DNA of 64,000 nucleotides from the IMG/VR virus record IMGVR_UViG_3300020047_008750. One strand, 5' to 3'. Below, piece after piece: positions 1 to 64,000 of this stretch. The DNA is from an uncultured virus (IMG/VR IMGVR_UViG_3300020047_008750). Lineage: Duplodnaviria > Heunggongvirae > Uroviricota > Caudoviricetes. The position numbers were made by a program, and so were the translations under genes. Under the pieces are notes generated by a model that did not search any database, was not told the DNA's origin, and saw nothing but the letters and a program-made list of their open reading frames with translations. The stretch's first letter is position 1, and each line of letters opens with the position of its first letter.

Positions 1-261
1 TACTTGAACCAGACAAAGCGCGCAGGAATCTTGACAATCACAAATGATGAAATCATTTCTGCAGGCGACACCAACAGTTCGAAATATAAGATTGTTGTTC
101 AGATGTCAGATGTCAGATTCATTTCTGAAGAAATGCCGACAGGAACAGACGAACTGTTCGCAATCAGCGTTGAAGCAGAATGCTACTATGACACTTCTGA
201 CGGTCAAGCGATTCAGATCAAAGTCACAAATGCGAAAGCAGGCACAGAGTACACAGCATAA
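1..261 (+). CDS. Major tail tube protein, 3' end (segment A, partial)
   Basis: Nearly identical to the C-terminus of 36896-38131 (ECYYDTSDGQAIQIKVTN..GTEYTA). Confidence 0.75.
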   Translation, partial: YLNQTKRAGILTITNDEIISAGDTNSSKYKIVVQMSDVRFISEEMPTGTDELFAISVEAECYYDTSDGQAIQIKVTNAKAGTEYTA

Positions 262-323
262 TTCACAAAAGGTTTTCGGGCTTTCCTTCATAAAAGCTTC
301 ACTTATTTTTTTATTTTTACACT

Positions 324-722
324 ATGTCAGGAACAAAGAAAGTCGAGTTCAACCTTGACGCGCGTCAGACAAAAACCGTTGAACTTCCTTCATTCCCTTG
401 AAGTGAGGTCATTGTATACCCTTCTCTTATCGTCAGCGATCAAAGAGAAATCGAAAGCAAATTCAAAGGTTCTGACAACAAGGTTGATGAAGCGAGAATT
501 CAAGATTTCAGTCTTGCACTTCTGGTCAAGTCAATCAAATCGTGGAATTTCACGAAAGATTGACAGGACCTTGCAATCACAGCTGAAATTCTTCAAAGCT
601 TTCCTTCGATTGACTTCCTTGTTCTGAATCAAGCAATCACAGGCAAGAAATTGACGCACACAAATGAGGCAGGTGAGCTTGTTGCAGGTGCAGGTGATGA
701 TTCTGACAGTAAAAAAAAATAA
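324..722 (+). CDS. Tail assembly chaperone (G form); -1 frameshift extension to 964
   Basis: Between tail tube and tape measure; A9 run just before TAA; -1 frame continues IIAKNRVFD...LAKEYGWT to TAA at 962-964. Confidence 0.8.
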
Positions 723-973
723 TCGCAAAGAACAGGGTTTTTGACGCAATGATACAGTGAAAGGGATTCACAGCGACAACACAAGATGAAGCAGACGCGG
801 TGACAAGGTTCTTTGACCTGACACTTGCGAAAGAATACGGTTGGACGCAGACAGACATTCTTCACAGGACGACGCAAGATTTTTACAACGACGCAATCTT
901 GCTCATGCAAAAGGAAGCTTTCTTCAGACAGAAGGAAGCGGAAAAGAAAAAAAACAATAAATAATTTTCTATC

Positions 974-3067
974 ATGGCAACAAATAAAGTCGAATTCGTC
1001 ATTTCAGCAAAAGATGAAGCAAGTCAGATCATCAAGAATGTTGACAAGAACGCGCAAGAAATGTCGTGAAGCGTTTGAAAAAGCTTCGACAACCTTGTTG
1101 CACCTTCCGCAGCATTTCTTTGAGTTTTGACCGCTGTCGGTGCGTGAATGGTTGTTCTCGCGAAAAATGGTCTGACCGCTGCAGCTGATCTTGAAACTGC
1201 AGAAATCGGTTTGACAACACTTTTGAAATCTGCTGATGAAGCAGGAAAAACAGTTGAACGAATCAAGCAAGAAGCAGCAAGAACGCCTTTTGAACTTGTC
1301 GGACTGACACAAGCTGTTCAACTTTTATCTTCTGTGACAAAAGATTGAGACAAAGCAATCGACATTGTTCTTGATGTCGGTGAAGGTCTTGCGGCAATGG
1401 GTAAATGACAACCTGAACTTGACAGAATCATCGTGAATCTTCAACAAATTGCTTCTGTCGGAAAAGCGTCAATGCTCGACATAAAACAATTTGCGTTTGC
1501 AGGTATTCCGATTTTTGAAATGTTATCACAACAGACCTGATTATATGGTGAAGAACTCGGTGATCTTATCACTGACGGTGGTGTGACATTCACTCTTCTG
1601 ACAGAAATGTTTGACAAAGCAAATGACGCATGATGAGATTTTTTCAATGCGTATAAAAATCAAGCAGGATCATTCAATCAAGCACTTTCAAATATGAAAG
1701 ACAGCGTCACAATTTTTCTTGCTGAATTGGTCAAACAGACCTGACTTTTTGACGCGATGAAGAAATGATTCATTCTTGTCACAGATTCACTCCCGAAACT
1801 CATGACGCTCATGCAAGATTTTGCACAGACATTGAGAGAGAACCCGAATCTTGTTCTTGGAATTGCAGCGGCAATCACAGCAATGCTTGTCCCTGCTCTC
1901 TATGCAGCAGCAACCGCAGCACTTCCTTTCATTATCGCAGGCGGTCAATTGATTTTGATTGCTGCAGCAATTGGTGCTGCAGTATATCTTCTCGCTGAAG
2001 CGTGGTCTTCAGATTTTATGTGAATAAAAACAGCAACTTTGATTGTTTGGGAATATATAAAAGCTGCATTCAACTGAATTGTTGCTGCATGAATATATTT
2101 ATATGAAAGCTTCTTTGTTGTGAGAGACAAGATCGTCGAAGTGTGGTCAGAACTGAAATTATGGCTTTCAAACACTTGGGATTCAATAATCTGAACAATC
2201 TCTTCAGCATGGTCATGACTTGTTTGATTTTTTGAAGCTATTTGGAAAGGAATTATTGAACTTTTCAAACTGTATGTTGCACTTTCTGTCGGAATCATAA
2301 TTTTTGCATTCAATGCGATGTGAATCGACATTGTTTGAATATTCAATACGGTCAAAGATTATTTGACACTTTTCTGGGAAGGATTGAAACTTGTTTTCAC
2401 AGTTTCCTTGCTACTTATAAAAACACTTTGGGAATCAACTTGGTGAGCAGTCAAGAAATTTTCTTCTGATGTTTGGGATTCAATTTCGACAAAAATTTCA
2501 ACAGTTTGGTGAGCAATAAAATGATTCGTCACTGACGGAATGACATATATTTCAGAAACATTCAAAATACTGTCTGAACCTATCAAACAAGCGTGGTCTT
2601 CTCTTTGGGAATGATTGTCTTCTTCGGTGGTTGCAGTTTGGTGAATAGTGAAAGAAACAATCCGCAATTCTATGAACTGGATCATCGACAAGATCAATGC
2701 GGTCATTGAAATGGCGAATCGTGTTGCAGCAATGGGTTCGAAAGCGGTTTGAATAAATATAGTATCAATACCAACGCTTCCGCGATTCGCACACGGTGGT
2801 CTTGTCTGAATGTCTGACGGTGGTGTCGTATCGGGTGCAGCTTGAATCGACAAGGTTCCTGCAATGCTTTCTGCAGGTGAGATTGTTTTGAACGCAGCAC
2901 AACAGCAAAATGTCGGAAGACAGATCAAAGGAAACTGAACAACAATTCAGGTTGTTGTTGAATGAAACAATTTCTATTGAGACGATGAAAATTTCGCACA
3001 GAAAATCGGGAAAACTATTCTTGAAGATTTCAAACTTCACACTTCTTTTCCTTCTTTCAGTTCATAA
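974..3067 (+). CDS. Tape measure protein (697 aa), tape_meas_nterm-type core
   Basis: Open with TGA=Gly; AARTPFEL..LQQIASVGKA..DIKQFAFAGIPIFEML motif, Trp-spaced repeats, C-terminal FAHGG..DKVPAMLSAGEIVLN. Confidence 0.85.
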
Positions 3068-3079
3068 CATAAAAAGAAA

Positions 3080-5725
3080 ATGCAAGTCTTCGCAAACAAC
3101 ATTGATGTCACAGCTTATGTTTCGAAGAATTCGATTCGGATCACGGAACAGTTGAACAACAGGTCAAACACCTGTTCATTCACGGTTGATTCATACAATA
3201 TTTCTGAAGGTCTGAAAATTGAAGTGTTCGAAACTTTTGTCTTGCGAGCGCAGGCAAGTTCATGACAAGCGGTCCTGAATGTCAGCGACACTTTCGAATT
3301 CGAAAACAAATTCAAAGCAGGCGATGAAATCCTTCTTCGCATAAAAGAAGCAAGCGAAGTCTTTGTCACGATCCTTTCTGTCGATCACACAGCAAAGACA
3401 ATCACTTTGACTGCAAACCTGACTGCAACAATCCCTGTCGGTTCACAATGCTGACGGATTGTTTTTTCAGGTGTGACGCAAAAAAATCCGAATCAAGAAA
3501 TCTGAACTTCTGGTTCCTTTTCCTATAAAATCACCGCGACGGACTGGACGAAAATATTCGACGCAAAAAACATTGCTGACACTTTCGAAGATCAGTATTC
3601 TCGCGAAATGATCGGGCGTGTTCTCTATGGATTCGTTGCAAATGACACAGAAACAAACCTTGATCTGTTCGAATCAGCTTGGACTGAATCGGGTGTTGCT
3701 CTCGCGATGACAGCTGACAGCACTGACAGGATTCAAGGCACGAATTCAATGCAGACAGGAACTTCAGGTTCTTGAACTGCAACTTGGACGAAAGCAATTT
3801 CTTCTGTCGATATTTCAGTGATGACACGAATCAGATTCTGGTTCAAGATTTCAAACAACTATTGATCAAAGGTCACTTCATTGAAATTTCGCGTCGGTTC
3901 TGATTCTTCGAATTATTATGAATATTCGACAGCGTGGGTTTGAGTTGCGAATGAGGACTGTTGGAATTTTGACAGCTTCGATATAGCGCGCGCGACAGTC
4001 GTCGGAACACCTGTTGAAACTGCGATTGATTGGCTTCAGATTGAAGTCGTGGCAAGCGCTACAATTCCGACAGGGAATCTTCACTTCGATCATGCGCTGA
4101 CTTCTTCAGGTGGTTTCACAATCAAGAATGTGATTCGTGGTGACAAGAAATTCACTGATGTTCGTGTTCAATATAAAAAACCGACGGTCTTTGTTGAAAA
4201 CATTTCGAAGCTTCAAAATTTCTTCTGGTTCATTGACTATGAAAGGAATATTCATTTTTTCAAAAGTGACGCAACACTTGCACCTTTTTCGCTGACAGAT
4301 TCTTCTGAAAATTATGATGACTTGAATGTCACAACAGACATTTCACAAGTCAAGAACCGTCAGACTGTTCGTGGTTGAATCGCGGTTGATTCGAACCTAT
4401 ACACACAAGACGAAATCACAGATTGAGAAGCTGAATCATGGCGTCTCGATTATCCTGCGAAGACTTTGCGAATCTATGTCGACACAACAGGAACATGATC
4501 GAGTTTTGTCGAAAAAACAGTCGGTGTCGAAAATCTCGATAATCCTGCAAGTTTTGACTATTTGTTCAACTTCAGTGAAAAAGTTGTTCGAAAATCAGTT
4601 GCAACAATACCGCCTTTATGATCAATCTTCCGTCGCACTTATTATCCATACAAACCGATTCGCGTCAGAGTGATCAGTCAAGTTTCTATCGACGCGATGA
4701 AGCTTCTTCTGTGAGGTGACGGAATCTTCGACGGTGCAGTGATCAACGACAGTTCAATTCGCACCTTTGCTGAAGCAAGAACGCGCGGAAGAGCAGAAGT
4801 CGACGCATACAAAAATCCTATAATCACAGCAGATTTCGTCACACAAAAAGACGGTTTGAAAGCAGGTCAGGTCATTCATATCACTGACAGTTCTCGCTGA
4901 ATCAATACTGACTTTCTGATTCAGAGCATTTCGAAATCATCGAGAAACGATGATCGTTGGACATACAAAGTCACTTGCGGATCAACAATGTTCTGATTGA
5001 TTGAATTCTTTCAGCTTCTTCTTGCGCAAGCAGGAAAATTTGAAGTCGATATTTCTGAAATTGTCGATGTGGTCCTGAATCAAGACGAAACAATCACCTT
5101 CACACCTTCTGTCAGCTATACACACAAGACAGCACCATTCAAAGCAACTTCGAACCTGAAAAAATGGTTTGATTTCGTCGCTGAATCAGGAACCTTCACA
5201 ACTTCATGATTGATGACAAGCAGCGCTTGAAATACAGGTTGGTCAATGATTGAATCAGGAACAGAAGCAGCAACGGTTGTCTTCGACGCTTCTGCACGAT
5301 ATAACGCAGGAAAAGCACTGAAGATGACAACAACAGTCGGTTGATCTGGTCAAACACTGACGGTCACAAACTTTGTCAGAATCCCTGCGACACCTTCCGC
5401 AAATTATGCGCTTTCTGCTTGGATAGAAATTTTGACTGCGCTGACTGGTTCGGGTGGCTTCTCGATCAATGTGAAAGAATATGCAGCATTGACAGGCGGT
5501 TCAGCTCTCGCGACAACTTCAATTATTGCTTCAACAAAAACTGTTCGTGACTATAATCGAGCAAGACAGACTTTCACGACGAACGCTTCAACAAATTTCA
5601 TCGAGATTGAATTGAAAATCGACAACGCTGTTTGAACTGTTTCTGTCGGTGAATTGTTTCTTGAAGATCTTTCAACCGAATCAACTTCACTTCCTGCGGT
5701 TGCGAGCTTTTCCGAAACAATATAA
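3080..5725 (+). CDS. Large tail tip / baseplate hub-like protein (881 aa)
   Basis: Directly after tape measure; same length as and colinear with 41293-43938; WFIDYERNIHFF and VKNRQTVRGG segments. Confidence 0.65.
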
Positions 5726-5743
5726 TTCCATAATCAAAACAAT

Positions 5744-6346
5744 ATGAATTCAAAAATCGACAAGACAATCAACACCGCGACAAACTACAAACTGACGAAA
5801 GCAACTGATGAAGTTCTTGCGAAAATCTTTGCTGAAAAAATGCAAGAACCGAATCACTTCAAGTTTCTTGACTGGCGCGGAAGACTTTTGAAATACGCAC
5901 AGAAAAAGATTCCTGAATTGCTTCGAGACTACAAAGGACCGCTTCTGAATCAGATGACTGTCTGGGAAGGTCACAACATTGTTCCGCTTATCCTTCGAAG
6001 CGAACTTGCTGCACTGATATCATGAACAACAGTCACACCGACATTCAAGGCAAATTATATGGCTGTTTGAACTGGATCGACAACGCCTGTAAACTCTGAC
6101 ACACAGCTTGTCGCGGAAACTCTTCGCGCAACATTCGAAAACAGATTTTCTGTCGATAATGTTGCATATCTCGACAAATTTTTCACTTCTGCACAGGTTT
6201 GATGAACAACAATTTCTGAACTCGGAATTTTTGTTGATTGAACCGCGTCTGCAAACACTGGATATTTGCTTTCAAGAATTCTCGCGAATGAAGTCATGGC
6301 TGCAACAGAAACTTTGACCATAAATGCGTCTGTGACTATAGCATAA
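5744..6346 (+). CDS. Tail collar/fibre-type structural protein (200 aa)
   Basis: YMAVGTGSTTP..DTQL..E and ISELGIF motifs typical of tail-collar proteins; homolog at 43957-44553. Confidence 0.55.
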
Positions 6347-6412
6347 CAATAAATTGTACTTTGTTTCAAAAATAAATATATTGTTTTCATCTTATTTTTT
6401 ATCAATGATAAT

Positions 6413-6889
6413 ATGAAAAAATGAACTTATCATTCTGAAGACTCAAAAAAGAAAATGTCTGTTGCAATGGAATGAAAAATAAATTGGAATAAAGGTAAAA
6501 AATGAATTTATTCTGAAAAATCAAAACAGAAAATGTCAGAAAGCGCAAAAAAAAGATGAAACAATCAACCGATTGAATTCAGGAAAGAAAAATCGAGTTC
6601 TTGGCAATCGGAAAAAAATCCACGATTCAAACCTATTTGAACAAGGAAGGATAATTGACACGGATATATTTTGATAAAGGTCGCAACATGACTATGATTT
6701 AGAAACTGGGAATTTGAACATATTGTCAATATGGAAAAACATATATGAAGAAAAATAAACAAGAAAATAGAATGTGTTCACCATGTTGATTATGTAAAGC
6801 ACAACAACAATATTGATAATTTGAAACTGATGACAATCAGAGAACACAAAAAATTTCACTTGAAAGATAATCTTCAAAAAGACAGATAA
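6413..6889 (+). CDS. HNH homing endonuclease with NUMOD3-like repeats
   Basis: HSEDSKKKMS / SEKSKQKMS repeats, GYILIK, VHHVDYVKHNNNIDNL..EHKKFH; AT-rich; absent at the equivalent site in B (44553-44589). Confidence 0.85.
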
Positions 6890-6915
6890 TTTTTATTTTT
6901 CTATATACTTATTTT

Positions 6916-7488
6916 ATGCCGCGAAATAATTCAACAAACTGGTCAACAGGCGACAATATTTCTGCAACAAGATTGCAGCAAATCAATGCTGATCTCGACA
7001 ACCTATATTCAACAGGTTCGGACCGTTTGAAAGTCTACGCTTCAACAGGTTTGAATATTCTGATCGGTGCGTGAAATTTTCGCGTAGGAAGCACAGAATG
7101 AATCTATGCAGGCGGTACTGTCGCAATGACAAACAATGCGACGAATTATGTCATGATTGATTCTTCAGGAACAATTCAGGTTTCAACTTCTGCTTGGAAT
7201 GCGAATTATACAAGACTCGCTGTCGTGACGACAGTTTCGGGTGCAATCACTTCAATTGTTGTGTGGCGTGTCGACGCAATCGGTTGAGTTTTGTGAGGTG
7301 GTTGATTCAAAAACATTTCTGCGACGACATACACACAAGGACTTTTGACACAGTTCACAGCAGACTGAACGGTGTATAATCTGACATACAATTCACGATG
7401 ACAAGTTCTCACGATGACAAATGGTGTGAATACTTGGACTATAACATATAATTCATTGTGAGTTATAACATGAACCGCTGAATCATAA
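6916..7488 (+). CDS. Tail structural protein with YD-like C-terminal beta repeats
   Basis: TYNSRGQV..TWTITYNSLG repeats; homolog at 44589-45164. Confidence 0.55.
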
Positions 7489-7511
7489 TTTTTATTTTAT
7501 AATTTTTTTAT

Positions 7512-8645
7512 ATGCTTACAGTCATTGCAAATCCGCCTTCTGAATATTTTTCAAATATTGATTATAGGACTTCCGCACAAAACATAATTCCTACAGTGAC
7601 AAATCTTTGAACTGTTTTGTCATATTGGATTGATAAAACAAACAAATATATTTATATTCTGTCACCTCGAACTGCTTCAACATGGTTCACAATCAGGCGT
7701 TATGATTATAATGCTTGAATAATTTGATCAGGAGTTGATATTACTCTTTCTGGTTTTTGAACATTTACTTCGCAACCGATTTTTCATATTTTTCAAGGTT
7801 CACACAGTTGAGATTTTTATTTATATTGTGAATCAGCTTGATGAAGCGCGAGTTTTGCAGCGTTGACAATATATCCGATTACTTTTTCTTGAACAACTGC
7901 AACACGATGAACAGCAAATACACTTCCTGTCGTTGCTTCATATACATTGAGAAATTTATATGCAAAATGAGCAGTTTTATATGCTTTTTATGCTCTCACA
8001 GGATCACCATTCACAGCAAATGTGACAAGAAAATTTTCAGGTTCTTGGACTACTTTGACATGAAATGCTCTTTTGACGAGTGTTTGAGCATTTACATGAA
8101 CTTGAGAAATGTTTGCATGACAATGAAGATTCCCTGCATGATCTTCAAACACTAAATTATATTTATATCATTCATCGGGTTGAGGTGCTGTTTTTGACAC
8201 TTGAACTGAAGCTTGGTCACTTGAAACAAGAATCACAGGTGATCAAATTATCTGTGATGTTTCTTGAATCACTATAGTTCCGAATTTCGTCATTTTAGCG
8301 GATTGAACTTCAATTGTTTGACCGAGTATGCCTGCAGTGTCTTCGCCTGTTGGTAGTATATGGGACATGAACAATTGAATTGCGTTGAATATTGTGTCAA
8401 GTTGATCTTATTATTTTTCAGGTTGATTCGTTTGAGCTGCAAGAATTTTGAGAAGAGTATTTTGAACACTACAAAACGACAATTGTTTTGTTTTTTATTC
8501 AACAGATAATTGAACTACTTGGAAAACTCTTCCATATTTGACAACGCTTATTTCTGATTTTTATAATCTCAATTATCGTTGAGACATTATTTGTATTCCA
8601 TTTTATACAACGACTACAAAAGTTATGACTGTGGAGGTTGCATAA
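7512..8645 (+). CDS. Putative receptor-binding protein (377 aa)
   Basis: Ser/Thr/Gly/aromatic-rich beta protein at the end of the tail module; homolog 45192-46373 diverges in the C-terminal half. Confidence 0.5.
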
Positions 8646-8670
8646 TCATTTATATAATCAAATTTTTTTT

Positions 8671-8919
8671 ATGAAAATAAATATAATCACAAACGATGAC
8701 TGAAAGATCACTGAATCTTGTCTTGCAAAAATGGAAGATTCAGACGCAATTTCAATCACAGAAGCAGAATATGAACTTCTGGTTCTTCAATATGACACTT
8801 TTGTCAAAAATTGAAAAATAATTTCACAGACAAAATGAACTGACGCAGAAAATCTTCAAATTTTTATCACAGAAATAAAAGAAGAAGAAGAAGCAGCTGC
8901 GCAGACACCTGAAGCATAG
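8671..8919 (+). CDS. Small acidic protein, possible tail fibre chaperone
   Basis: Follows the putative RBP; homolog at 46400-46660. Confidence 0.45.
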
Positions 8920-8949
8920 TTTCATTTTTTATTTTTTTACTCTTTTTTT

Positions 8950-9624
8950 ATGGACTACAAATCCGCACTGCAGACAAAGAACAAGAGCGCAGGAACAAAC
9001 ACCTGTCAATTCATTATTCTTCACCATACCTGAACACCTGAAGGCACGATCAAAGGTGTTTTGAATACTCTGACAATCAGCAAAGGTGACAAAGCTGTTT
9101 CGTGTCACTATGTTGTTGACTCGAACGGTGATGTTCACAAGATCGGGAATGACACCGACATTCTGTGGCACGCAGGACTGTCTGCATGGTGAAATCTCAC
9201 AGGAATGAATTCATATTCAATCGGAATTGAAATCATCGGTGGTGCGACAGCTGAAGGGGGCTTCACGGATATTCAGCGCGAAGCAGTCTGAAAGCTTGTC
9301 GTCGAACTCTCGAAGAAATACGGAATCGGAAAGTGAAACATTTTGCGACACAAGGACATTTCACCTTGACGCAAGACTGATGTTTCGGATCCGTTCTGGT
9401 CTGATAAATTCAAAACCTTCAATGAATACAAGGATTCACTTTTTTCAGCACCGTCGGTCAATGTTTCTCGCTATACAGGAATTATGAATTCGGTTCTTGC
9501 AGAAACTGGATTCAAACCGTTGCTTGAAAAGCATGAAGGAAACGCACCATTGACGGAACAGGAAACAAAGGAACTGATTGAAATCGTGTTCGCACGATTC
9601 GCGGAAAGAAACGGTCTGAAATAA
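8950..9624 (+). CDS. Endolysin, N-acetylmuramoyl-L-alanine amidase (Amidase_2-like)
   Basis: IILHHTG, SCHYVV, WHAG, NSYSIGIE, RHKDISPGRKTD motifs. Confidence 0.9.
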
Positions 9625-9641
9625 TTCATAATCATTTTTCT

Positions 9642-9842
9642 ATGTTCGATTTTTCAAATCGCGAGACGGTCAAGAATGTTCTTCTTGTTCTTGTTGTTCT
9701 CGCAACAATCGCTTTCGTCGCAATGAACAAAGTTTCAGGTGAAAACTTTTTCAAGATAGTTGATCGAGTCACTGCACAATATTTCGCAACTACTGACAAA
9801 ACTGAAGTTCCGAAAGATCAGGTCAGCGAATTGTCGCAATAA
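9642..9842 (+). CDS. Small membrane protein, putative holin
   Basis: Hydrophobic helix VLLVLVVLATIAFVA, directly after the endolysin; homolog at 47376-47585. Confidence 0.55.
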   Translation: MFDFSNRETVKNVLLVLVVLATIAFVAMNKVSGENFFKIVDRVTAQYFATTDKTEVPKDQVSELSQ

Positions 9843-9870
9843 AAAACCGCCTTGTCGTGGCGGTTTTCTA
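9841..9870. terminator. Bidirectional intrinsic terminator
   Basis: AAAAAACCGCC-TTGTCGT-GGCGGTTTT hairpin between convergent genes; identical at 47584-47612. Confidence 0.8.
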
Positions 9871-9872
9871 TT

Positions 9873-11224: not shown

Positions 11225-11235
11225 AAATAAAGGGG

Positions 11236-11553: not shown

Positions 11554-11574
11554 AAGCAGAAATGAAGAAATAGA

Positions 11575-12336: not shown

Positions 12337-12338
12337 AT

Positions 12339-53705: not shown

Positions 53706-53720
53706 TTTATCTATAATTTT

Positions 53721-54236
53721 ATGATATTGAAGCCGATCAGGGATTTTGAAAAACTCTATTGAGTTGATGAAAATAGTGAAGTCTATTCATTCAGAAGGAA
53801 GAAATTTTTGAAAAAATGGAAAAATGACAAGTGATATTTCATGGTGAAGCTTCAAGATGATTGCAGAAAAGTCACACGAAAAAATTGTCGAATTTGAGCT
53901 GAAGAATGGGTTGAGTGATACTTCGAAGGCGCTGAAGTGAATCATGAGGACTGAAACAAAGAAAATGATCATATTTCAAATTTGAAATGGGTGACAAAAT
54001 CACAAAATATTCAACACGCTTGGAATACATGATTGTTGAAGGTCACTGACAATTTGAGAAGACAAGCTTCAATCAATGGAAGAAATAGATGTCGCGAAAG
54101 AAGAATGTTTTCACCGCAACAGATCATTGAAATCAGAGCGATTGAATGAATGACATTGCGAGAAATTTGAGAGAAATACGGTACAGATCACACAGTTATC
54201 TGAAATATCAGAAGGTTCAAATCTTATAATGACTAA
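53721..54236 (+). CDS. NUMOD4-HNH endonuclease
   Basis: KPIRDFEKLY, K[TGA]YFMVKL, EVNHED[TGA]NKENDHISNLKWVTKSQNIQHA, C-terminal HTH. Confidence 0.85.
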
Positions 54237-54239
54237 AAT

Positions 54240-54635
54240 ATGATCATCATTTCAATTCCCGAAAAATGACGGTGTGTCTTCGCTGACAAAGACTATAAAA
54301 AAGGCGAGACAATCGAAATCTGCGAATATATCACCATTCCGCAAGCGCAGATCGAAATGCTGAAGAACACCGTCGTCAATGACTACTGGTTCGGACTCGA
54401 TTGAGATCAGTGAGACGCACAGCTTCTTCTTTGAACCTGAAGTCTCTTCAATCACTCTCGAGAACCGAACATGACGCCTATATTCGAAAAAGAGACTTTG
54501 CGCGTTGGTTTCGTGGCAATCAAGGACATTGAAGACGGTGACGAACTTGTCTTCGATTACTGATACACACCGCGATTCCGCGAACAGTGACCGTGCAAGA
54601 TTGTCAGGAAAATCAAACAATCCGAAATTTCATAA
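54240..54635 (+). CDS. SET-domain protein lysine methyltransferase (131 aa)
   Basis: K[TGA]RCVFADKDYKKGETIE, [TGA]SLFNHSREPN, FVAIKDIEDGDELVFDY[TGA]. Confidence 0.88.
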
Positions 54636-54646
54636 TCTTTTTTCTT

Positions 54647-55363
54647 ATGTGAGAAACACAAACAACACTTCCGATCCGCACTGAAGCAGAAGACATTCTG
54701 TTTGAGACGAACCGCCTTCGCGCTGAAAAGCTTGTCGAAGACTTGAACAACGGATTCTTTCAAGACATTGCAGCATGACTGCAGGAAGGTCAGAAGATGA
54801 CTTTTGAATTCGCTGACGGTTCGAAGCAAGTCGTCACACCGAATTGTTCGCACAGAATTTGACCTGAAGGCGTTGATTTCTTTGTCGATGAATGCTGACG
54901 ACAATGTTGCACAAACTGCAAACGCTCGATTGCAAAAATGAAAGTGACCTTCAACAACATTCATCTTGCGACAGCAATCAAGGCGTTCGAATACGCGGTC
55001 AAAAACAATGTTCAATATGTTCAGCTGAATGATATCGGATTGACGAAACAGGAATATGCGAACATGAACCGTCTTGTGAAGTTCGGTCTTGCCTTCAGGA
55101 ATGATGAAATCAAAATCAGGTGATCGAATATGTGAGTCTATGGAATACCGCGAAAGAGAATTTTTGATTTCATTCGTGGTCAGTGGACGGTTGCAAGTTT
55201 TTTCATTCAAGATCCTCTTCTTTCTGAAGGTGACGAATGAAGAAGAGAAATGTCAGAAAAGCGAATCACGATTGATCAGGTTCCGCATATATCAAAACTG
55301 CGCGAGACTTTTTGACATACGCTGACAGCTTATGAGTGGAATGAACAGGATTCTTTTGAATAG
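54647..55363 (+). CDS. Conserved hypothetical protein with CxxC
   Basis: Homolog of 16623-17375. Confidence 0.7.
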
Positions 55364-55457
55364 TTTGTCAACATAAAATCAATTGCGAACAGTTGCAATT
55401 CAATGCAAACAGAATATAACAGTTGTGCGTCATTCTTTATTTTTTTACACTTCATTT

Positions 55458-55907
55458 ATGGAAACGCTTTTTTCTTCCGCTGTCGTCGCAGTCTCTGTTG
55501 TGTCACTTTGGACTTTCCTTTCAGCAATATATGTTTTCCGAAACAGACATATTGCGAAGAAGATCAGAACCGAACTTGAAAAAGAGTTCAAAGAGAAAAC
55601 AGACAATTCACTTCGAGAGATTCAGAAACAGAAAGTTGATTTCGAAAAAAGATACAATGAACTGACGCAGGAATTGAAAGACAAAATCATTGAAGTTGAA
55701 AAGACGAATGAAAATGTCAAAACATTGCAAAACAAGCATGTCGAATCGTGAGCAGCACAAGCAATCGTTGAACTCTGGTCTGAACTCTGAAAATTCATTT
55801 CAAAGAATTATAAGTCAGAGCAAAACAAACAAAAATATTTCGCAATGATCAATCACTTCAGAACTTATCTTCTCGAGAAAGCAAAAAAAGCGAACTCGAA
55901 AAAATAA
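55458..55907 (+). CDS. Single-TM coiled-coil protein
   Basis: Positional homolog of 17456-17899. Confidence 0.6.
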
Positions 55908-55933
55908 TATTTTATTTCAATAAATTTTTCACA

Positions 55934-56140
55934 ATGAGCAATCAAGAAATGCTTTTCACAGTCAAAGAAGTTGCAGATCGCAAGCTTCTCGGATATGGTC
56001 AGCGGACGATTCGTCAGCTTATCAAAGACAAAAAAATCAGGACCGTCGATCTTTCTGAAAATGATTCTTCTCGAGAGAGAAAAACGATTCGAATTCCCGA
56101 ATCAGCAATTCAAGAATTCCTTGAAACAAAGAAATCATAA
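55934..56140 (+). CDS. Excisionase/MerR-like HTH protein
   Basis: Homolog of 17922-18119. Confidence 0.8.
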   Translation: MSNQEMLFTVKEVADRKLLGYGQRTIRQLIKDKKIRTVDLSENDSSRERKTIRIPESAIQEFLETKKS

Positions 56141-56167
56141 TCAGTCTATTTCATAACACTGCAAGAC

Positions 56168-56899
56168 ATGGCACGCCCTCGAAAAAACAATGCGGACTGG
56201 TTTTCGCATGATACTGATCTGCGCGACAATTTGAAAATCAAGGCGGTTCGCGCGAAGTACGGACTTGAAGGATATGCAATTTTTGTCATGCTTCTCGAAG
56301 TTCTTGCTGACGCGGAAAACTTCATTCTTGAAGAAAACGATTTTCAGGTTGAAATGCTTGCAGGTGACTTCAGAATTGATTCTGCAGTTCTCGCTGAAAT
56401 GATTGATTATATAGTCAATATCGGACTGCTTCAAAGGGAAAACTGATCCCTGTTCAGCAGACACTTGATCGAGAGAATGGAAGCACTCTTGAACAAGCGA
56501 AACAATATGCGTTCAGTCTATCACAAGAAAGTTCCTGTCGCAGAAACACCTGTTTCTGAAGCAGAAATCATTCAGAAACTCGAACCGAAAGAAGAAAAGA
56601 TGTCTGATGAAGACTTCGAATCTTTTTGGAAAGAGTACCCTGTGAAGGAAGAGAAAAAGAAATCTCGCGAGAAGTTTTTGAAACTTCCGAAGGCACTGCT
56701 TCCGACAATTATTCAGTCTATAGCGCTGAACAAAACACAAAATGAAAAGTGGTTGAAGGGTTTTATCAAACAGCCGACGACATGGATCAACGGTGAATGT
56801 TGGAATGACGAAATTGCTTCTTTTTTACCCTCTAAAAATTCCGCAAATGGTCAACAAGGAAAAGTCAGCACAGACTGACACGCAGATCTTGAAGTGTAG
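56168..56899 (+). CDS. Replication initiator (DUF4373-like)
   Basis: Homolog of 18147-18875, with conserved [TGA]HAD..V-stop end. Confidence 0.8.
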
Positions 56900-57632
56900 T
56901 CATTGCGACGATACAGGAAGGACGCAGAATGAAGTTGTCATTCACCCTTTCTGATTCACGAAATGATTCTGCAGCTGCGAGAAATGAGATTCAGCATTCA
57001 TGAAGTGGAAGAATGAACCTGCACAGATTCAGAAGGTTCGAGAGTTCAAACAGAAACGAATCGAAATCCTTCTTGAAAAATCAAATGTCTGAAACAAGTT
57101 TCGAAGCAAGCGGATCAAAGATCTCTCGGATATTCCCGAACTGGAAAAACTCTGTCGATCCTATGTTGACGGATTCAAGACACACAAAGAAAAAGGTTGG
57201 TGACTATACTTCTGGTGAAACATAGGATCAGGAAAGACACACAGCGCAACAGCGGTCTGCAATGAATTGATTGAAGCGCATTCAACAGAAATCTTGTTCG
57301 TGAATATGTCAGATGTTTCGAACCGCGTCAGAAGCAGTTTCGATTCTGCATGAAACGATTCAGAACTGTTTCAGGACATGAAGAAGGTTGAACTGCTTGT
57401 CATTGATGACATAGGCGTCGAGAAGGTCACAGAATGGTTGTCAGAACAGTTGTTTCTTGTCGTCAATTACCGATATGAAAACAATCTTCCGATAATTATC
57501 ACAAGCAATCAATCAATTCAGGATCTCGCGAAGATACACAAACCGCAGATCGCGTCGCGTCTCGATGAAATGTGCAAGTCAGTCAGGTTCAAAGGTGAAG
57601 ACAGGCGAGTCGACAGGCGTCCGCGTTTCTAA
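56847..57632 (+). CDS. DnaC-like helicase loader
   Basis: [TGA]NIGSGKTH, LLVIDDIG. Confidence 0.9.
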
Positions 57633-57774
57633 AATTATTTATTTTTTACCTTTTTACACTATGAAAGAAACATTCGAAAAATGTTCAATGTTGCCTTTGA
57701 AAAAGGGTGTCAGTATGAAATTTTGTTTGGTCTTATAAATAGTCACTATTTTTTATTTTTTTATTTTTTTTATT

Positions 57775-58233
57775 ATGTCAAACAGCTTGAACAAGGTTCA
57801 GTTGATCGGGAATGTCACAGCTGATCCTGTCGTCAGAAAAATCGGTGAATCTCGCACCGTCGCAAACTTCAGCATTGCGACAAATCGGACATGGAAGGAT
57901 TCGGACGGAAAGAAACAAGATGTCGCTGAATTTCACAATATTGTGATCTGGTGAAAGCTTGCTGAAATCGTCGAAAAGTATGTCACGAAATGAAAAAAGA
58001 TCTATGTTGAAGGACGCCTTCAATCGAGTTCGTGGGAAGATGAACAAGGCGTCAAGCGATACAAGACAGAGATCGTCGCAGATCAGATGATTCTTCTTTC
58101 AGGTGGTGAAAAGAAGTCTGACAACAGCGACGGAATGATTCAAGAGGATCCTGAAGACACAGAGATTGTCACAAAGGAAGAGAAGAAGAAATATTCAGAA
58201 TCAAGTGTTGACATACTTGATGTTCCATTCTAA
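57775..58233 (+). CDS. ssb: Single-stranded DNA-binding protein
   Basis: LNKVQLIGNV, YVEGRL, DVPF tail. Confidence 0.95.
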
Positions 58234-58257
58234 TATATAAAATATAATCTTTCAAAT

Positions 58258-58848
58258 ATGAAAAAATTCCCTTGCTCGCAAACCGCGTCAAACCGTTCAT
58301 TCATCGCACTTGATGAAGCCATTTTCTTGATTCTCTTGACGGTGGCTGTTGTATATATTGCAATCCCGATGTTCGATTTCAGCAATCAGAAAATTGAAAC
58401 ACCTGAAACAGAAAAGATTCAGCTGATTTCAAAACCTGCTTGCATAAATATTCAATACAGCGAAACAACAATCCTGCGTCAAAAGTCATGGCGCGACAAG
58501 CGATTTCTTGAAAATGTTCATGTTCAACATGCCTATGAAATCTCTGAAGGCGACATGAATTTCGTGTTGACTGTCGAAGCTGAATCAAAGTTCGATCCGC
58601 AAGCAGTCGGTGACAATGGAAACAGTCGATGATTCTGTCAATGGCACTATAAATGGCACAAGGAAACGCGGAACAATCCGAACTTCAACGATCCTGTTTG
58701 GCAAATGGAAGAATGCTTCAAATACTACACACAAGTTTTGAACAACGGAACAATCAATTCGCGTCTGTACTGATACAAAGTCAGAAATCTGATGAAGGAT
58801 CGCTTCATATTCAAAGCAGAAGAAAAAACACTTCAAATCTGCGAATAA
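58258..58848 (+). CDS. Membrane-anchored lytic transglycosylase (SLT-like)
   Basis: TM plus ESKFDPQAVGDNGNSR[TGA]FCQ. Confidence 0.7.
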
Positions 58849-58858
58849 TCTTCTTTCT

Positions 58859-59296
58859 ATGAAAAAAAAATCACCTCTCGAAGATGTCGAATCGACACTG
58901 TTCACTTCATGGCTGCGCTGAAACAATCTTCTGAATGGTCATGTTCCGAATGAAACACCGACAAAACGAAAGATTGTCACACCTGAATGAAAAACCTTGT
59001 GGGTTGGTTGACACAAGCGAAACATGCGAAATCGCGCGGTGTGAGTCACAAAATGAATCCCTGATCACTTCTGCTTCATTCCTGCTGATCGTTGCACTGA
59101 AGGTCGTCAGGTGTGTCTTGTTGTCGAAATGAAACGCGAAGACGGTGTTCCTTCCGATGTCAGCGAAGAGCAAGAAGAATGGCTTCAAGCTTTCAATTCT
59201 GTGAAAGATGTCGAATCATTCGTCGCATTCGGTGCGAAGCAAGCAATTCTTTTTGTCTCGCAATACCTGATCAATCCGAAAAAATACGATTTTTAG
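58859..59296 (+). CDS. VRR-NUC nuclease
   Basis: Homolog of 22636-23076. Confidence 0.85.
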
Positions 59297-60528
59297 TCTT
59301 TTATTTTTACACTATGAAACAAAAATCTTGTCACCTTCAGCGTCGTTTTTCATGAATGCACGATGACTGCATATATTACACAAACGAATGCAGCTGCTGA
59401 CGGTCCTTCACAGACTGGTTTGCAGACAGATCAGAAATGCTTTTCGAAACACACCTGAAAGCGAATTTCTATCCTACAGTTTCGGAACTGAAAGAAAAAT
59501 GATTCCGCGAAGACGGTCTTTCGAACTTCAAAAGAAATGTCGCACGGAAAAATCTTCGATACAGAAACGATATATGACTTTTGGAATACAATCGCAATCA
59601 CTACATTGCTTTTGAATCAAAGGAACAATTTGAATACTTCTTCCTGCACCTGAAAGAAAGTCTTGCACCGTTCGACGCTCTCGATCTCAAAAATAATTCA
59701 TAATCTTTTTTCTTATGGTCAAAATCGAAAAACAATTCCTTGCGCGTGAAATGCAGTGACTTCTTTGAAATGTCATGTCACTGAAAGGCGACAGCACTGA
59801 TGATCTTGTCGAAATTCTCGAAAAGATGAAAGTCGTCACGGAAAAGATCGAAGAAGATCTATACTATCATTCAGCACCGTTTCACAAACAGGAAAGAAAC
59901 TATCAGTTCCGATTCATAAAATAGCACTATAATGAAGTCATTATTTCATAATTTTCCGCAACATGAAAAAGACGCTTCAACAGAAGAAACGCAATTCGCG
60001 TTCTCTCTGGGAAAAACAGAACCGAATCTTTGAAAATAGGTTCAAGCGAAATGAAAAACTTCACAAGAAGAACCTGAAACGCCTTGCACTTTGCTTCCTT
60101 GTCTTCCTTCTGGTTCCTGTCATGATCACAATCGTCGCTTTTATCTTTTATCAACTCTAAAATGAAAAACCTTTCTGCAAGGTGTCGCGGTGATCCTGTC
60201 AGTGAATGGCGCCTGTTCAACTCTCTATTCCGTCAGCAATGTAAAAATTCGCCTATATGGTCACTTCAAAATGAAACACAAAAACAAAACCGAAAGACTG
60301 GAAGCAAGAGAATGCAAACATTTTCTTCATAGGTAGGAAAGAAGTTCCTTGATTCAACTTCCCTTTGCTCGAAGGAAAGATAATCAAAGACAACCTTGAT
60401 TGAACCTTCACTGTTCGTGTCTTCTGCAAAACAAAGTGAGCGCCTGCGAATCCGATGACTCTGTCAATCGAATCGAACCGTCTCTGTCGTGGCAAGTCAT
60501 AACTCTATTATTTTTTTTCCTTTCTCTT

Positions 60529-60978
60529 ATGAAAACAATCAGCGCAACAAATCAGACAATGCAATATTTGTATTCAATCGCACTCGACGCGAATGTCGAA
60601 ACAATCGTGAAACTTCGAACGGTCCGTGCTATACTTCAGAAGTCATTCCCTGTTGTGAATGCCTATGAACTCGAGAAGAAGCAACCTATGGAACAAGTCA
60701 GAGCAATCGAGAAACAAATAGACAGCATTGTTCAGCTTGGAAAGCAAGACGCACAAGCAGATCAAATGAAACAGCTTCAGGAATCTCGAACAAAGATCCT
60801 TGATGAAGTCATTGCAACCTTCGCGAATGCTGAAGTCACTCTTGAACTCGAAGAATCAGAAATTGCTTTCCTTCTCAATGAACTGACTGAAGTTCTTGCA
60901 GAAGCAAAACGATTGAAGACTTCTGAAGAAATGGTGTATTTCGACAACCTATTCACAGCACTCGAAAACGCTGCATAA
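60529..60978 (+). CDS. Conserved helical hypothetical protein
   Basis: Homolog of 24475-24924. Confidence 0.65.
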   Translation: MKTISATNQTMQYLYSIALDANVETIVKLRTVRAILQKSFPVVNAYELEKKQPMEQVRAIEKQIDSIVQLGKQDAQADQMKQLQESRTKILDEVIATFANAEVTLELEESEIAFLLNELTEVLAEAKRLKTSEEMVYFDNLFTALENAA

Positions 60979-60983
60979 TTCTG

Positions 60984-61070
60984 TTGACGAATTTTTCTTT
61001 CGTCATAGACTGCTTTTCGTCTTGCAGTGTAAAAAGACAACAGAAAGAGAATCCTTCGGGGTTCTCTTTT
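60984..61070 (+). ncRNA. Candidate small RNA, second copy
   Basis: TTGACG..TAGACT, GTCTTGCAGTGTAAAAAGACAA, AAGAGAATCC-TTCG-GGGTTCTCTTTTT. Confidence 0.45.
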
Positions 61071-61140
61071 TGCATTGTTGCAATCTGTGGATTTCTGAAT
61101 ATATTTATTGCAATTATTGCGTGGTCATTCATACACTTTT

Positions 61141-61767
61141 ATGATCGAAAAGAAAAAAGACATTCCCTTGAAGAAAAAGAAAAAAAAGACTTGAAAAAAC
61201 AAGCGCTCTTCATGGAACAAAATTGAAGAAGGTTGAATCGCAGTCACAGACAACAGAAAGAAGCTTCAGGAAAAGCTTTTGAAGGAAGAAGCACAAGAAG
61301 ACAATATTGTCAAGGCACACTTGAAGACACTTGAAAATCATACAATGACTATCGGAATGCGGATTGAAAAAGTGGCTTTTGCGATTTTTCTTTGACTTCC
61401 TGAAGCAGTTCGATGAACGCAAGGTGACTTTTCTCGCGAGTGGTGAATCAGTGAACAAGCGCTTTCTGGTTGGAAGTACCTTCCCGAAATTCAAAAGCTT
61501 CGGTTGGTGATCATGAAATCAGTTCTGATTGAAAGAACACCTGCAGTCATGGAAAACCTTTTCACTGCAGCTTCGAAAGCAAATTCATTCTGATCAGTGA
61601 ATGTCGGTGCGGTGAAGTTGTGGCTTCAGTTCGTCGAAGAATGGAAGGAAGCAAGCACGGTTGATCTGAATGCTACAGGTTGATTTCAAATCAACTTCGG
61701 TGCGTGAAAGAGTCAATTCATAAATCCGACAGACGAACAACCTGTGAAGGAATCAGAGAAGACATAA
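61141..61767 (+). CDS. terS: Terminase small subunit
   Basis: Homolog of 25099-25728. Confidence 0.7.
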
Positions 61768-61778
61768 TCCTTTTTTTT

Positions 61779-62147
61779 ATGAAATATCGAATCAGCAACT
61801 TTGATTGATTATCTGTTTTCATTCCTTTGGATAAAGATGCAAAAAGATTCAGGAAAAAAACAATACAAAATCTTTCAGCAGAAAATTGAGTTATAAGAAA
61901 AAGAGATAGAGTTGCATTGTGATATTCTTCAAAAGATTTTTCTGAAAAAAGAAAAATTCTATTGTCTGAAGCTCGAAACAATTCATGATGTTCAGATTGT
62001 TCTTCAAAACAGTTTTTGCAGGTTCACCATAAAGACAAAGACATATTGAATAATGAATATGAAAATCTGCAAGTATTATGTTTCTATTGTCATGCAAAAT
62101 ATCATAAGCATATGCAAAACAAAAATCCACCTTCTTGGCTAAAATAA
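61779..62147 (+). CDS. HNH endonuclease inserted between terS and terL
   Basis: CSDC..LQVHHKDKDILNNEYENLQVLCFYCHAKYH; absent in B. Confidence 0.85.
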
Positions 62148-62149
62148 AT

Positions 62150-63565
62150 ATGACCGTTCTCAATCTTTATCCTTTGCAACCTGTTCAACAAAGAGCTTCA
62201 GCAAGCACTGCGCGATTTCGGTTGATGTGAGGTGCAAAAGGCGGTTGAAAATCATATTGGATCCGTTCGGAAAGTGTTCGTGAATGTTTGTCTGCTCGAA
62301 ATGTTCGATGACTTGCCTTGCGTCGAACTTCACCTGAAATCAGCGAGAACATGATCATTCCGCTTCAAAGGGAACTTCCACCGACAAGAACTTGATTCTA
62401 TAATTTCAACAAGACAGACAAGATCATGCAGTTTTTCAACGGTTCGACACTGCGTTTTTCCTATTGTCAGAATCTTGCCGATGTCATGAATTATCAAGGA
62501 ATCGAATATGATTTCATCGCGATTGAAGAGCTGACACACTGGACCGAACTTGAATGGAAACTTTTGATGTGATCCCTTCGAACAACTCGCGACGGAATCA
62601 AACCGAACTTCTTTGCGTCAACAAATCCGTGATCAATCGGTCACCAGTGGGTGAAGCGTCTTTTCGTGAAGCGAGAGTTTCAGGAATGAGAAAATCCCGA
62701 TGACTATGACTTCATTCCTGCGCGTGTGTGGGACAATGAAATTCTTATGCGGACACAACCGCAATATTATCAACTCTTGCAAGCACTCCCCGAAAAAGAG
62801 CGTCGCGCCTTTCTCGAAGGTGACTGGAATGTCTTTGACGGTCAGTTCTTCACCGAATTTCGAACTGACCTTCATGTCATTCAACCCTTTGTTCCGAAAA
62901 ACTGAATCAAGAAGCGAATCATCTGTCTCGATTACTGATATTCTGCACCGTCTGCTGTCTATTGGTTGGCGCAGGATAACAACGACACTGTGTTCGCATA
63001 CCGTGAACTGTATGTCAAAGGCAAGACATACAAACAACTTGCAGCGCAGGTCATGGCAATGACTCCCGATGATGAAAAGATTGATGTCACGATTGTCGAT
63101 CCTGCAATCTTGAACAAACCTTCAGAGACGACAGGAACTTCAGGAAGCGACGAAATGAAAGCGGTTTGACTCAAAGTAAAATGAGCAGATAATAGTCGCG
63201 TTGCAGGTTGGCAAGTCTTCAGACAATTTTTGCAACCGTTTGAGGATCAGAACACAAGAAAGATTTCTGCGGGATTTTATATCACTTCGAACTGCACAAA
63301 TTTGATTCGAACACTCCCCGAAATGGTTCATGACAAAGTCAATGTTGAAGATATCAACACCAAACTTGAAGATCATGCTTGTGACGCGATTCGATATTGA
63401 CTGAAATATTTCGGTGCGCGAACAAGTTCACTTTCCGAAATAAAAACGATGAATGATGTGTTCAACAAGAAGTTCGAACAAGAAGTTTGAAACATGGCTT
63501 CTTTTTTACAAAAAAAACCTACAATAAAGACAACAAAAGGTTGAATCCTGACGCTCGAATTCTAA
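62150..63565 (+). CDS. terL: Terminase large subunit
   Basis: Homolog of 25747-27159. Confidence 0.95.
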
Positions 63566-63584
63566 TATTTTTTATCTTTCATAT

Positions 63585-64000
63585 ATGACAAAGAAAGAAA
63601 CAATCAAGTCAACAGAATCAACTGTTGAAAAAGTTCCTTCACAGATTTCAGAGACGAAAACAAAAAAGCATTCGAGCGACAAGAAGGACCTTCTGAACAC
63701 TTTCGGTGCTTCAGGAACTTCACTTGTTGAAGGATATATTCTTGAAGAATACAACCCGAAGCTTGCATGATCTGCAGGTCTTCTTGTATATGAGAAAATG
63801 CGAAAGTCTGACGCACAAGTTTTCGCGACACTTCTCGCAATGGAACTTCCGATTCGCTCGACAAAGTGGGACATAATGCCTGCAAGCGATGAAAACGGTG
63901 AAACAGGTGATCGAGAACATGAAATTGCAGACTTTGTTCGAAAAGCACTTTTCGAGAAAATGGAAACACCGTTCGACGATTTCTTGCGAGAGGTTTTGAC
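63585..64000 (+). CDS. Portal protein, 5' part (runs off window)
   Basis: EEYNPKLA..MRKSDAQVFATLLAMELPIR as in 27187. Confidence 0.85.

Follow-up and report, generated by a model that had tools for sequence, protein, structure and literature searches.

The 64,000-base stretch of DNA analyzed here (the window), part of the IMG/VR record IMGVR_UViG_3300020047_008750 of an uncultured member of the Caudoviricetes, very probably holds two siphovirus-like phages of about 37 kb each that are written in NCBI genetic code table 25, with TGA decoded as glycine (Gly) by the host, for which a Gracilibacteria-type bacterium is the likelier candidate. In the mechanism that we propose, the genes of both phages would use table 25 with TGA as about one third of the Gly codons, and TGA in the replication, packaging, tail, lysis, and homing-endonuclease genes would depend for its decoding on a tRNA-Gly(UCA) supplied by the host and on the absence of release factor 2 (RF2) from that cell. 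The host would be a mid-GC recoded member of the Gracilibacteria/Absconditabacteria group in which CGA is kept as an arginine (Arg) codon, and TGA would be disfavored where expression is highest and so purged from the major virion genes.

That in-frame TGA stands for Gly, and not for tryptophan (Trp), is supported by three mutually independent tests that agree, based on codon exchange between homologous copies, on columns of homologous proteins, and on Pfam scores. The original prediction, made from the sequence alone, had placed TGA at invariant glycines, and all of its coordinates hold on re-reading. The Walker A motif of the large terminase gene (terL) reads TGA GGT GCG AAA GGT GGC TGA AAA TCA, with TGA at 25822 and 25840; an NTPase gene reads GGT GCG TCA GGT TCC TGA AAA ACT from 13079, that is, GASGS[TGA]KT; a DnaC-like gene reads TGA AAT ATC TGA TCA GGC AAG ACG from 19192; and an HNH endonuclease gene reads TAT TGA TGA AGG TGA ATC at 11970-11987. 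The amidase gene has TGA at 9031 in one copy and GGC at 46765 in the other. This kind of exchange is general, as had also been claimed, since TGA swaps with GGN and not with TGG across 24 alignments of homologous copies (at least 50% amino acid identity, 5281 codon columns). The partners of TGA in these columns are TGA (62), Gly codons (63), Ser (7), Ala (7), Lys (4), and Gln (3), with no TGG at all, and those of TGG are TGG (62) and otherwise just Phe, Tyr, and Arg. Such a pattern greatly exceeds chance. When 32 alignments are included in a looser set, Gly codons make up 88 of the 169 non-identical partners of TGA (GGA 44, GGT 25, GGC 11, and GGG 8), with two Cys and no Trp.

Comparison with homologous proteins is complicated by the way in which these sequences have been deposited. 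The composition of 119 terL relatives is bimodal, about 40 having 3-9% Trp and 1-5% Gly and the rest about 1.5% Trp and 6.5% Gly, and the window's own terL is present in the protein database with Trp at all 10 TGA sites. The Trp-rich, Gly-poor group consists of recoded relatives that the database has translated with Trp, a translation artifact. Translation under code 4 gives Walker A motifs such as WGAKGGWKS in the protein database. The column test used only homologues of normal composition (71 for terL and 25 for the amidase). In these standard-code proteins Gly is the commonest residue at 20 of the 31 TGA sites (12 of 21 distinct columns) and Trp at none, so that the alignment of TGA mainly to Trp, which the original prediction had named as evidence against itself, is not seen. 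Both Walker A columns of terL are 100% Gly in the 71 homologues, and the summed log-likelihood over the TGA sites is -40.6 for Gly and -104.9 for the runner-up, Ala, with Trp outside the top six. Moreover, solved DnaI/DnaC chains have Gly opposite all three helicase-loader TGA sites in and just before the P-loop. When the same 13 proteins were scanned against Pfam as code 25 and as code 4 translations, giving 19 family-by-protein comparisons, the Gly reading scored higher in 15, within 0.1 bits in two, and lower in two. Examples are AAA_24 (125.8 versus 113.8 bits), Portal_Mu (181.5 versus 171.4), PhageMin_Tail (164.2 versus 153.2), and IstB_IS21 (53.1 versus 46.7). Finally, the Gly share of the encoded proteins is 6.5% with TGA counted and 4.3% without it, and Trp would amount to 3.4% under code 4 compared to 1.2% from TGG alone.

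Some observations do speak against Gly. The Trp reading gives the higher score for Terminase_3 (by 1.1) and Phage_tube_2 (by 2.1), and several TGA columns are topped by T/S, K/R, N, E, or P, as is expected at variable sites. One might then suppose that TGA encodes Trp (table 4), the host being Mycoplasma-like or another code-4 organism, or the phage itself being recoded to code 4; the slightly higher scores of those two families and the stored terL translation with its 10 Trp residues are what this idea can call on. We give it practically no chance, because TGA is never exchanged with TGG but 63 times with GGN, Trp is the top residue at none of the 31 sites, TGA encodes the GK[ST] glycines of Walker A motifs in three ATPases, Trp content would reach 3.4%, and Trp in the relatives follows the bimodal composition expected of the translation artifact.

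The remainder of the code conforms to table 25, in which TGA is Gly, TAA and TAG are stops, Trp is encoded by TGG only, and no other codon departs from its standard meaning. The real and only stops are TAA and TAG, as the original prediction held for gene ends: of 24 homologous pairs of open reading frames (ORFs), 16 terminate at the homologous place in both copies, 6 of these with TAA in one copy and TAG in the other, the gene calling itself having assumed these two stops. For all codons, the commonest non-identical partner in the copy-versus-copy alignments is the standard amino acid or a conservative neighbor. CGA, CGG, and AGG are paired with Arg between copies (CGA has 52 Arg and 8 Lys partners), and Arg is the residue for CGA at 16 of 20 terL sites, with log-likelihoods of -17.4 for Arg and -101.5 for Trp; terL sites for CGG and AGG are too few to judge. 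Under code 11, ORFs of at least 100 amino acids cover 57% of the window and the longest has 375 residues, which shows that the standard bacterial code fails here. With TGA as sense, 423 overlapping ORFs of at least 100 amino acids cover 99.99% of the window, 257 of the ORFs having at least 150. Coding density had been suggested as a check on the recoding, and only the failure of code 11 is informative, given that the gain with TGA as sense would arise in any frame. The test is confounded because TAA and TAG are rare in all frames, most of which are open as a result; relative to expectation, TAA stands at 0.19 and TAG at 0.12 on the + strand, the corresponding values for the reverse complements being 0.25 and 0.29.

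This scarcity is accompanied by avoidance of many other short words. Observed and expected counts of palindromes in the window are 0/234 for CTAG, 0/119 for GGCC, 4/234 for ACGT, 18/461 for TTAA, and 27/234 for GTAC, with TCGA, GATC, TGCA, and CGCG at about twice expectation and the TA dinucleotide at 0.33. The window lacks 57 of the 1024 five-mers and 770 of the 4096 six-mers altogether, and CCWGG and ACATC are further avoided words. For many words avoidance is confined to one strand, with CCCA present once and TGGG 57 times, CCAG 3 and CTGG 108 times, and GGAG 4 and CTCC 30 times; C follows GGC in 0 of 161 cases and G follows GGA in 3 of 258. The closest recoded relatives (loci L001, L002, L003, L113, L114, and L116; 4-21 kb) have per locus no GGCC, 0-2 ACGT, and 0-12 TTAA, whereas relatives with the standard code do not share the pattern. 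Contigs of a recoded metagenome-assembled genome (MAG), G113, show avoidance in the same direction but weaker, its contig C8 (loci L213 and L214) having 0/137 CTAG and 1/82 GGCC. The word purge is, to our knowledge, more thorough than has been described for phages. Judging from word counts, it might be a lineage-wide answer of the recoded clade to dense host restriction or nuclease systems, orientation-dependent ones included, although we consider this explanation rather doubtful. Whatever its origin, the avoidance means that hardly any frame is closed, which could make room for genes that overlap. At the level of search listings, the literature yielded general papers on restriction-site avoidance and none on candidate phyla radiation (CPR) phages.

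The window had been taken for one phage genome, a view that does not survive self-comparison. It has a GC content of 41% with nearly all genes on the + strand, and positions 28-27,593 are collinear with 37,898-64,000 (blastn, nucleotide identity 69-88%), so that about 1.7 copies of one unit of about 37 kb lie within it. The window is thus two related genomes, A and B, about 72% identical and about 37 kb each. Genome B is a complete circular phage of 37,186 bp (12337-49522, + strand), whose modules run from replication through packaging, Mu-like head, tail, and lysis to two minus-strand genes and then the HNH cassette. Genome A is present in two + strand parts. Part 1 (1-12336), with tail genes, two HNH genes, and lysis genes, matches genome B collinearly over 37,898-49,522 (69-88%), and part 2 (49623-64000), with the replication module, a terS-like gene, terL, and the portal start, is collinear with 12,216-27,593; only the head genes of genome A are missing from the window. 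Between genome B and part 2 lies a scaffold gap of 100 N (49523-49622), and the 121 bases on each side of it are mutual copies (98%). GC content changes in steps, being 0.38-0.40 at 1-12,000 and 48,000-64,000 and 0.42-0.45 at 12,000-48,000.

Independent records support this resolution. Genome B is also a separate IMG/VR record, G002, of 37,307 bp with 121-nucleotide terminal repeats and a completeness rating of 100%. G002:1-2834 equals window 46,689-49,522 (99.9-100%), G002:34498-37307 equals window 44,000-46,809 (100%), and G002:940-37307 aligned to window 10,429-46,809, so that the record maps onto 12,337-49,522, closed as a 37,186-bp circle, with no rearrangement. A second IMG/VR record, G003 (37,263 bp), is 91-98% identical to stretches of genome A, several of them in part 1 at 96-98%, and the A-type terL is present on six more contigs of 37.4-39.6 kb. 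The two HNH cassettes (11,660-12,336 and 48,846-49,522) are identical at 674 of 677 bases and form the sole near-identical stretch between the copies. To the left of the cassette ungapped identity between copies drops to about 20-30%, and the N gap directly follows the cassette copy that ends at 49,522. In a run labeled as freshwater metagenome (X1), contigs of at least 99% identity cover 11,662-20,000 and almost none of 4,000-11,475. In a second run with a wastewater label (X2) only diverged pieces were found, and no habitat inference is drawn from it.

Our conclusion is that two phage genomes that occur together have been joined in the 76,998-base record, and that the join lies at the shared HNH cassette because the cassette is near-identical in both. 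Both copies do sit on that one record, as they would if they formed a real tandem, either a single molecule of about 75 kb or tandem prophages. A tandem without any assembler join is nevertheless very unlikely, given that genome B has a record to itself, of 37,307 bp and with terminal redundancy, and that an A-like genome has one of 37,263 bp, with the A-type terL on the six further contigs. In addition, the switches between genomes fall at the 677-bp stretch and at an N gap with duplicated 121-mers, the GC steps coincide with these switch points, and the contigs of run X1 extend over 11,662-20,000 while representing almost nothing of 4,000-11,475. The near-identity of the cassette in genomes that are otherwise about 72% alike suggests recent lateral spread, presumably by homing. 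In G003, the close relative of genome A, the version of the HNH cassette is only about 78% alike.

With both genomes delimited, the distribution of TGA over their genes can be described. We used 88 gene calls (18,267 codons) made with a self-trained codon model plus four genes called by eye, and it counts against our interpretation that these calls are rough and home-made in a genome with most frames open. They contain 397 in-frame TGA codons (21.7 per 1000), which make up 33.6% of all codons for Gly, with at least one TGA in 70 of the 88 calls, among them early, packaging, tail, lysis, and HNH genes. As a share of Gly codons, TGA reaches 0.36 in the early and replication genes of genome B, 0.20 in its packaging and head genes, and 0.27 in its tail and lysis genes, and 0.42-0.44 in the parts of genome A. 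It is almost lacking, however, from three virion genes, being 0 of 13 Gly codons in decoration, 0 of 22 in capsid, and 1 of 21 in tail tube (together 1/56, compared to 189/701, or 27%, for genome B overall). The recoded relatives are similar, with 0-1 TGA in each capsid and decoration gene and 5-14 in terL genes. The claim that recoding covers early, late, and HNH genes alike therefore stands insofar as TGA occurs in all of these classes, and has to be amended for the capsid, decoration, and tube genes. The pattern of TGA-poor capsid genes is the reverse of the late-gene enrichment of phages that recode themselves (PMC10746230). We infer that selection acts against TGA in the most abundant virion proteins, which is how a less favored sense codon would behave and not what a timing switch would give. 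The notion that TGA is chosen to avoid GG-containing sites is unsupported, its share being highest before A (188/430) and lowest before G (58/329).

Nothing that would allow the phages to decode TGA themselves was found. The absence of a visible suppressor tRNA, part of the original prediction, holds for the window (no tRNA by ARAGORN or Rfam) and, by ARAGORN, for the complete records G002 and G003 and for the loci of seven recoded relatives. Likewise, no release factor or aminoacyl-tRNA synthetase is among the Pfam and PHROGs matches of the proteins scanned, a set outside which many small ORFs lie. A code matched to that of the host, which had been preferred to late-gene recoding, is supported in that the complete genome has no tRNA and TGA occurs in replication genes. 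Since TGA is found in genes that are required from the start of infection and the phage has no tRNA, the host would have to supply tRNA-Gly(UCA) and be without RF2. A standard-code host infected by a phage that switches the code itself, through a suppressor tRNA and late-gene recoding as in recoded gut phages, would have ample precedent in that such phages are described as common (PMC10746230; abstract of 10.1101/2021.08.26.457843) and the code-25 phage RSA-ATP1 is reported to carry tRNA-Gly-sup(TCA) (PMC13059738). For the phages studied here this is extremely unlikely, because complete genome B, G003, and the seven relatives' loci have no tRNA, neither a release factor nor a synthetase is among the Pfam and PHROGs matches, and the use of TGA peaks in early and tail genes and is lowest in the major structural genes, where a late-gene switch would give the reverse.

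If the host decodes TGA as Gly, its identity is constrained, because the only bacteria described as using this code belong to the Gracilibacteria/Absconditabacteria group of the CPR (PMC8629427; PMC10746230). Of the two lineages named in the original prediction, we regard a Gracilibacteria-type host as more likely than an Absconditabacterium in which CGA and CGG stand for Trp, because CGA is used heavily as Arg and the usage of TGA, CGA, and CGG is like that of mid-GC recoded genomes. Per 10,000 codons, the phage has 104 CGA, its commonest Arg codon, together with 19 CGG and 217 TGA. The mid-GC recoded genomes G113, G223, G093, and G347 (GC 0.39-0.42) have 104-121 CGA, 22-42 CGG, and 144-195 TGA, and the low-GC recoded genomes G027 and G073 (GC 0.24-0.25) have 0-2 CGA and 456-462 TGA. 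Seven genomes of the GTDB class considered below, these six and G137, have an ORF cover of 0.12-0.69 under code 11 and 0.89-0.99 with TGA as sense. As reported, Codetta predicts CGA and CGG to be Trp in Absconditabacteria, where CGA is below 37 per 10,000 in all members examined, and some Gracilibacteria keep CGG as Arg (PMC8629427).

Links to particular genomes are indirect. Among named genomes, the nearest terL genes (53% and 46%) come from two standard-code 'Candidatus Peribacteria' MAGs, where they lie in loci that resemble prophages and have no internal stops. The GTDB class of the Peribacteria MAG with the nearest terL, which we take to be c__Gracilibacteria, holds both standard-code and TGA-recoded genomes, and a terL scan of 401 genomes of this class returned, in addition to the eight matches described below, one weak match with three internal TGA. 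The recoded MAG G113 includes a 36,689-bp contig (C8) on which an AAA_24 of 59% identity is accompanied by weak matches that are collinear with genome B; the tetranucleotide profile of this contig correlates with those of the MAG's other contigs at r 0.73-0.82. A terL alignment scan over 185,579 species genomes gave 80 loci, nearly all of them standard-code prophages of Firmicutes type at 46% or less, and a single-protein terL scan of genome contigs gave no match. Recurrent matches of 26-40 nucleotides at 24,447-24,482 are located in T-rich sequence upstream of a gene; they have the appearance of low-complexity similarity, and we do not regard them as spacers.

Several points weigh against this view of the host. 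That Absconditabacteria read CGA as Trp has been predicted computationally by others (PMC8629427), and the correlation of relative synonymous codon usage between phage and candidate host-type genomes is weak, at most 0.32. No close terL prophage is present in the 401 sampled class genomes (8 matches, the best at 53/47/38%). The first 20 kb of genome B gave no clean spacer-like match in the same 401 genomes, two candidates per genome having been scored, and at the DNA level this 20-kb search returned mostly similarity of the kind seen for SSB. Moreover, contig C8 of G113 is only a distant relative, its binning being weak evidence, and the patterns of the terL alignment scan contained columns set to W or G that are unmatched by TGA glycines, so that recoded genomes may be missed.

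There is something to be said for an Absconditabacterium predicted to read CGA and CGG as Trp, in that most clearly code-25 phages from spacer matching have been assigned to Absconditabacteria (PMC10746230) and RSA-ATP1, which is of similar size (39,071 bp), to the Absconditicoccaceae (PMC13059738). Such a host is unlikely all the same, because CGA is the top Arg codon of the phage and aligns to Arg, but is rare and predicted to be Trp in the Absconditabacteria examined (PMC8629427) and numbers only 0-2 per 10,000 in the sampled low-GC recoded genomes. We therefore favor a mid-GC lineage with TGA as Gly and CGA as Arg, as a lead and not as an assignment. In this respect the original prediction of a Gracilibacteria or Absconditabacteria host fits the code and the indirect links, no spacer or close prophage match was found in the 401 genomes, and Gracilibacteria-type is the better half of it.

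That viruses of these lineages are poorly described, as had been stated, is no longer accurate, since code-25 phages are already in print (PMC10746230; PMC13059738) and the present ones open no new category. Spacer matching has brought such viruses to light in IMG/VR and GVD, as code-25 phages and prophages assigned to Absconditabacteria and Gracilibacteria (PMC10746230). From the description given by Liu et al. in 2023, their phages share with genomes A and B dense in-frame TGA, almost no genes callable under code 11, and tailed-phage genes, and were taken from IMG/VR, the database that also has the records of genome B and of a close relative of A; either of these records may or may not belong to the 107 phages of that study. 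The two studies differ in that the host calls of Liu et al. rest on clustered regularly interspaced short palindromic repeat (CRISPR) spacers, none having been found for our genomes, and in that their code was derived from coding density whereas Gly and Trp were compared directly here. RSA-ATP1 is reported as a circular freshwater genome of 39,071 bp in code 25 with HNH and TerL genes, features that recur here, and with internal UGA in 60% of its ORFs; unlike our genomes, which have none, it is listed with four tRNAs, including tRNA-Gly-sup(TCA) (PMC13059738). It was compared by description, and is not among the tblastn terL matches in the phage collection (best 40.6%).

Recoded phages of standard-code hosts (TAG as Gln, TGA as Trp) also use in-frame stops as sense codons, but are described as carrying suppressor tRNAs, release factors, or synthetases and as concentrating their recoding in late genes (PMC10746230); in our genomes no such machinery was found and the major structural genes are the least recoded. 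A closer parallel in following the host code is offered by phages predicted to read AGG as Met without a tRNA of their own, although both the codon and the host group are different (PMC8629427). The present analysis adds a direct comparison of Gly and Trp, the resolution of two genomes, TGA-poor capsid genes, the CGA marker, and a warning about mistranslation. It provides a clean example of a phage wholly in the TGA=Gly code, consisting of a complete 37,186-bp genome and a close relative for comparison. The meaning and usage of CGA and CGG offer a simple second marker for narrowing hosts among code-25 lineages, and the avoidance of TGA in abundant virion proteins informs on how well the hosts decode it. 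For this clade, public protein collections place Trp at TGA (code 4), so that Gly motifs are corrupted and Trp is inflated.

The gene content, from Pfam and PHROGs matches, is that of siphovirus-like phages with a Mu-type head module. As in other Caudoviricetes, terL, portal, protease/scaffold, HK97-fold capsid, tail tube, tape measure, and endolysin are all present. All genes are on the + strand unless noted. Replication functions include an AAA_24 ATPase, which is the early gene with the GASGS[TGA]KT motif (13025-14284, Pfam), a DnaQ-like exonuclease (14871-15476, Pfam, 4 TGA), a Lin1244-type replication protein, the DnaC/DnaI-like helicase loader with TGA at its Walker A glycines (18769-19626, Pfam IstB_IS21), the single-stranded DNA-binding protein SSB (21001-21486, Pfam, 1 TGA), and endonucleases. 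The HNH cassette (11660-12336) holds the gene at 11871-12317 with the motif Y[TGA][TGA]R[TGA]I, which matches the PHROG HNH endonuclease with an E value of 1e-46. Packaging and head genes comprise the terS-like gene, terL of genome B (25747-27159; Pfam Terminase_6N and Terminase_3; 10 in-frame TGA, including those at 25822 and 25840), a Mu-type portal fused to a Mu F-like domain (27187-29871, Pfam, 9 TGA), a Mu protease/scaffold, and the decoration (cement) and Mu gpT-like major capsid genes (32075-33491, 35 Gly codons, none of them TGA). In its features and its predicted structure the capsid matches gpT clusters, for which the taxa returned were given as 'Viruses' only. Tail and lysis genes include neck proteins, the tail tube (36896-38131, 1 TGA), which is followed by two small genes, the tape-measure protein (38866-41283, 22 TGA), large tail proteins, and the Amidase_2 endolysin, at 8950-9624 in genome A (5 TGA) and at 46684-47358 in genome B (2 TGA).

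All four Pfam families of the Mu-type head (Portal_Mu, Mu F, protease I, and gpT capsid) are matched. The phages differ from Mu in their terL, which is of the Terminase_3/6N type, in that no transposase was found, and in a tail of tube plus tape measure with no sheath match among the proteins scanned; the Pfam and PHROGs scans of window proteins also matched no integrase. terL has no match among solved structures, and no close relative among 50,697 GenBank phage records (tblastn). A GAF-domain protein is encoded among the head and neck genes (34219-34866, Pfam E value 1.8e-5). The only minus-strand genes (47650-48420 and 48433-48735 in genome B; 10451-11224 in genome A) are situated after the lysis genes and before the HNH cassette, are matched by neither Pfam nor PHROGs, and are TGA-free in genome B; they may encode a regulator or a moron.

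Two kinds of noncoding sequence deserve mention. An element of 46 nucleotides, CAGAAACGCTTCA followed by tandem TATAG units, occurs three times between genes (11610-11655, 29913-29958, and 48791-48836) and stands out in a genome that otherwise avoids TAG. It may serve as a regulatory or protein-binding site. In addition, T-rich leaders of the type TTTTTATTTTTTTATTTT precede most + strand genes, for example at 24445-24474, 13000-13024, and 20975-21000. Of the 79 called starts, 33 have TTTATTT, TTTTTAT, or TATTTTT within 30 nucleotides and only 3 have a word of Shine-Dalgarno type (GGAG, GAGG, or AGGA); T makes up 47% of the leaders. Translation initiation is apparently not led by Shine-Dalgarno pairing in these phages.

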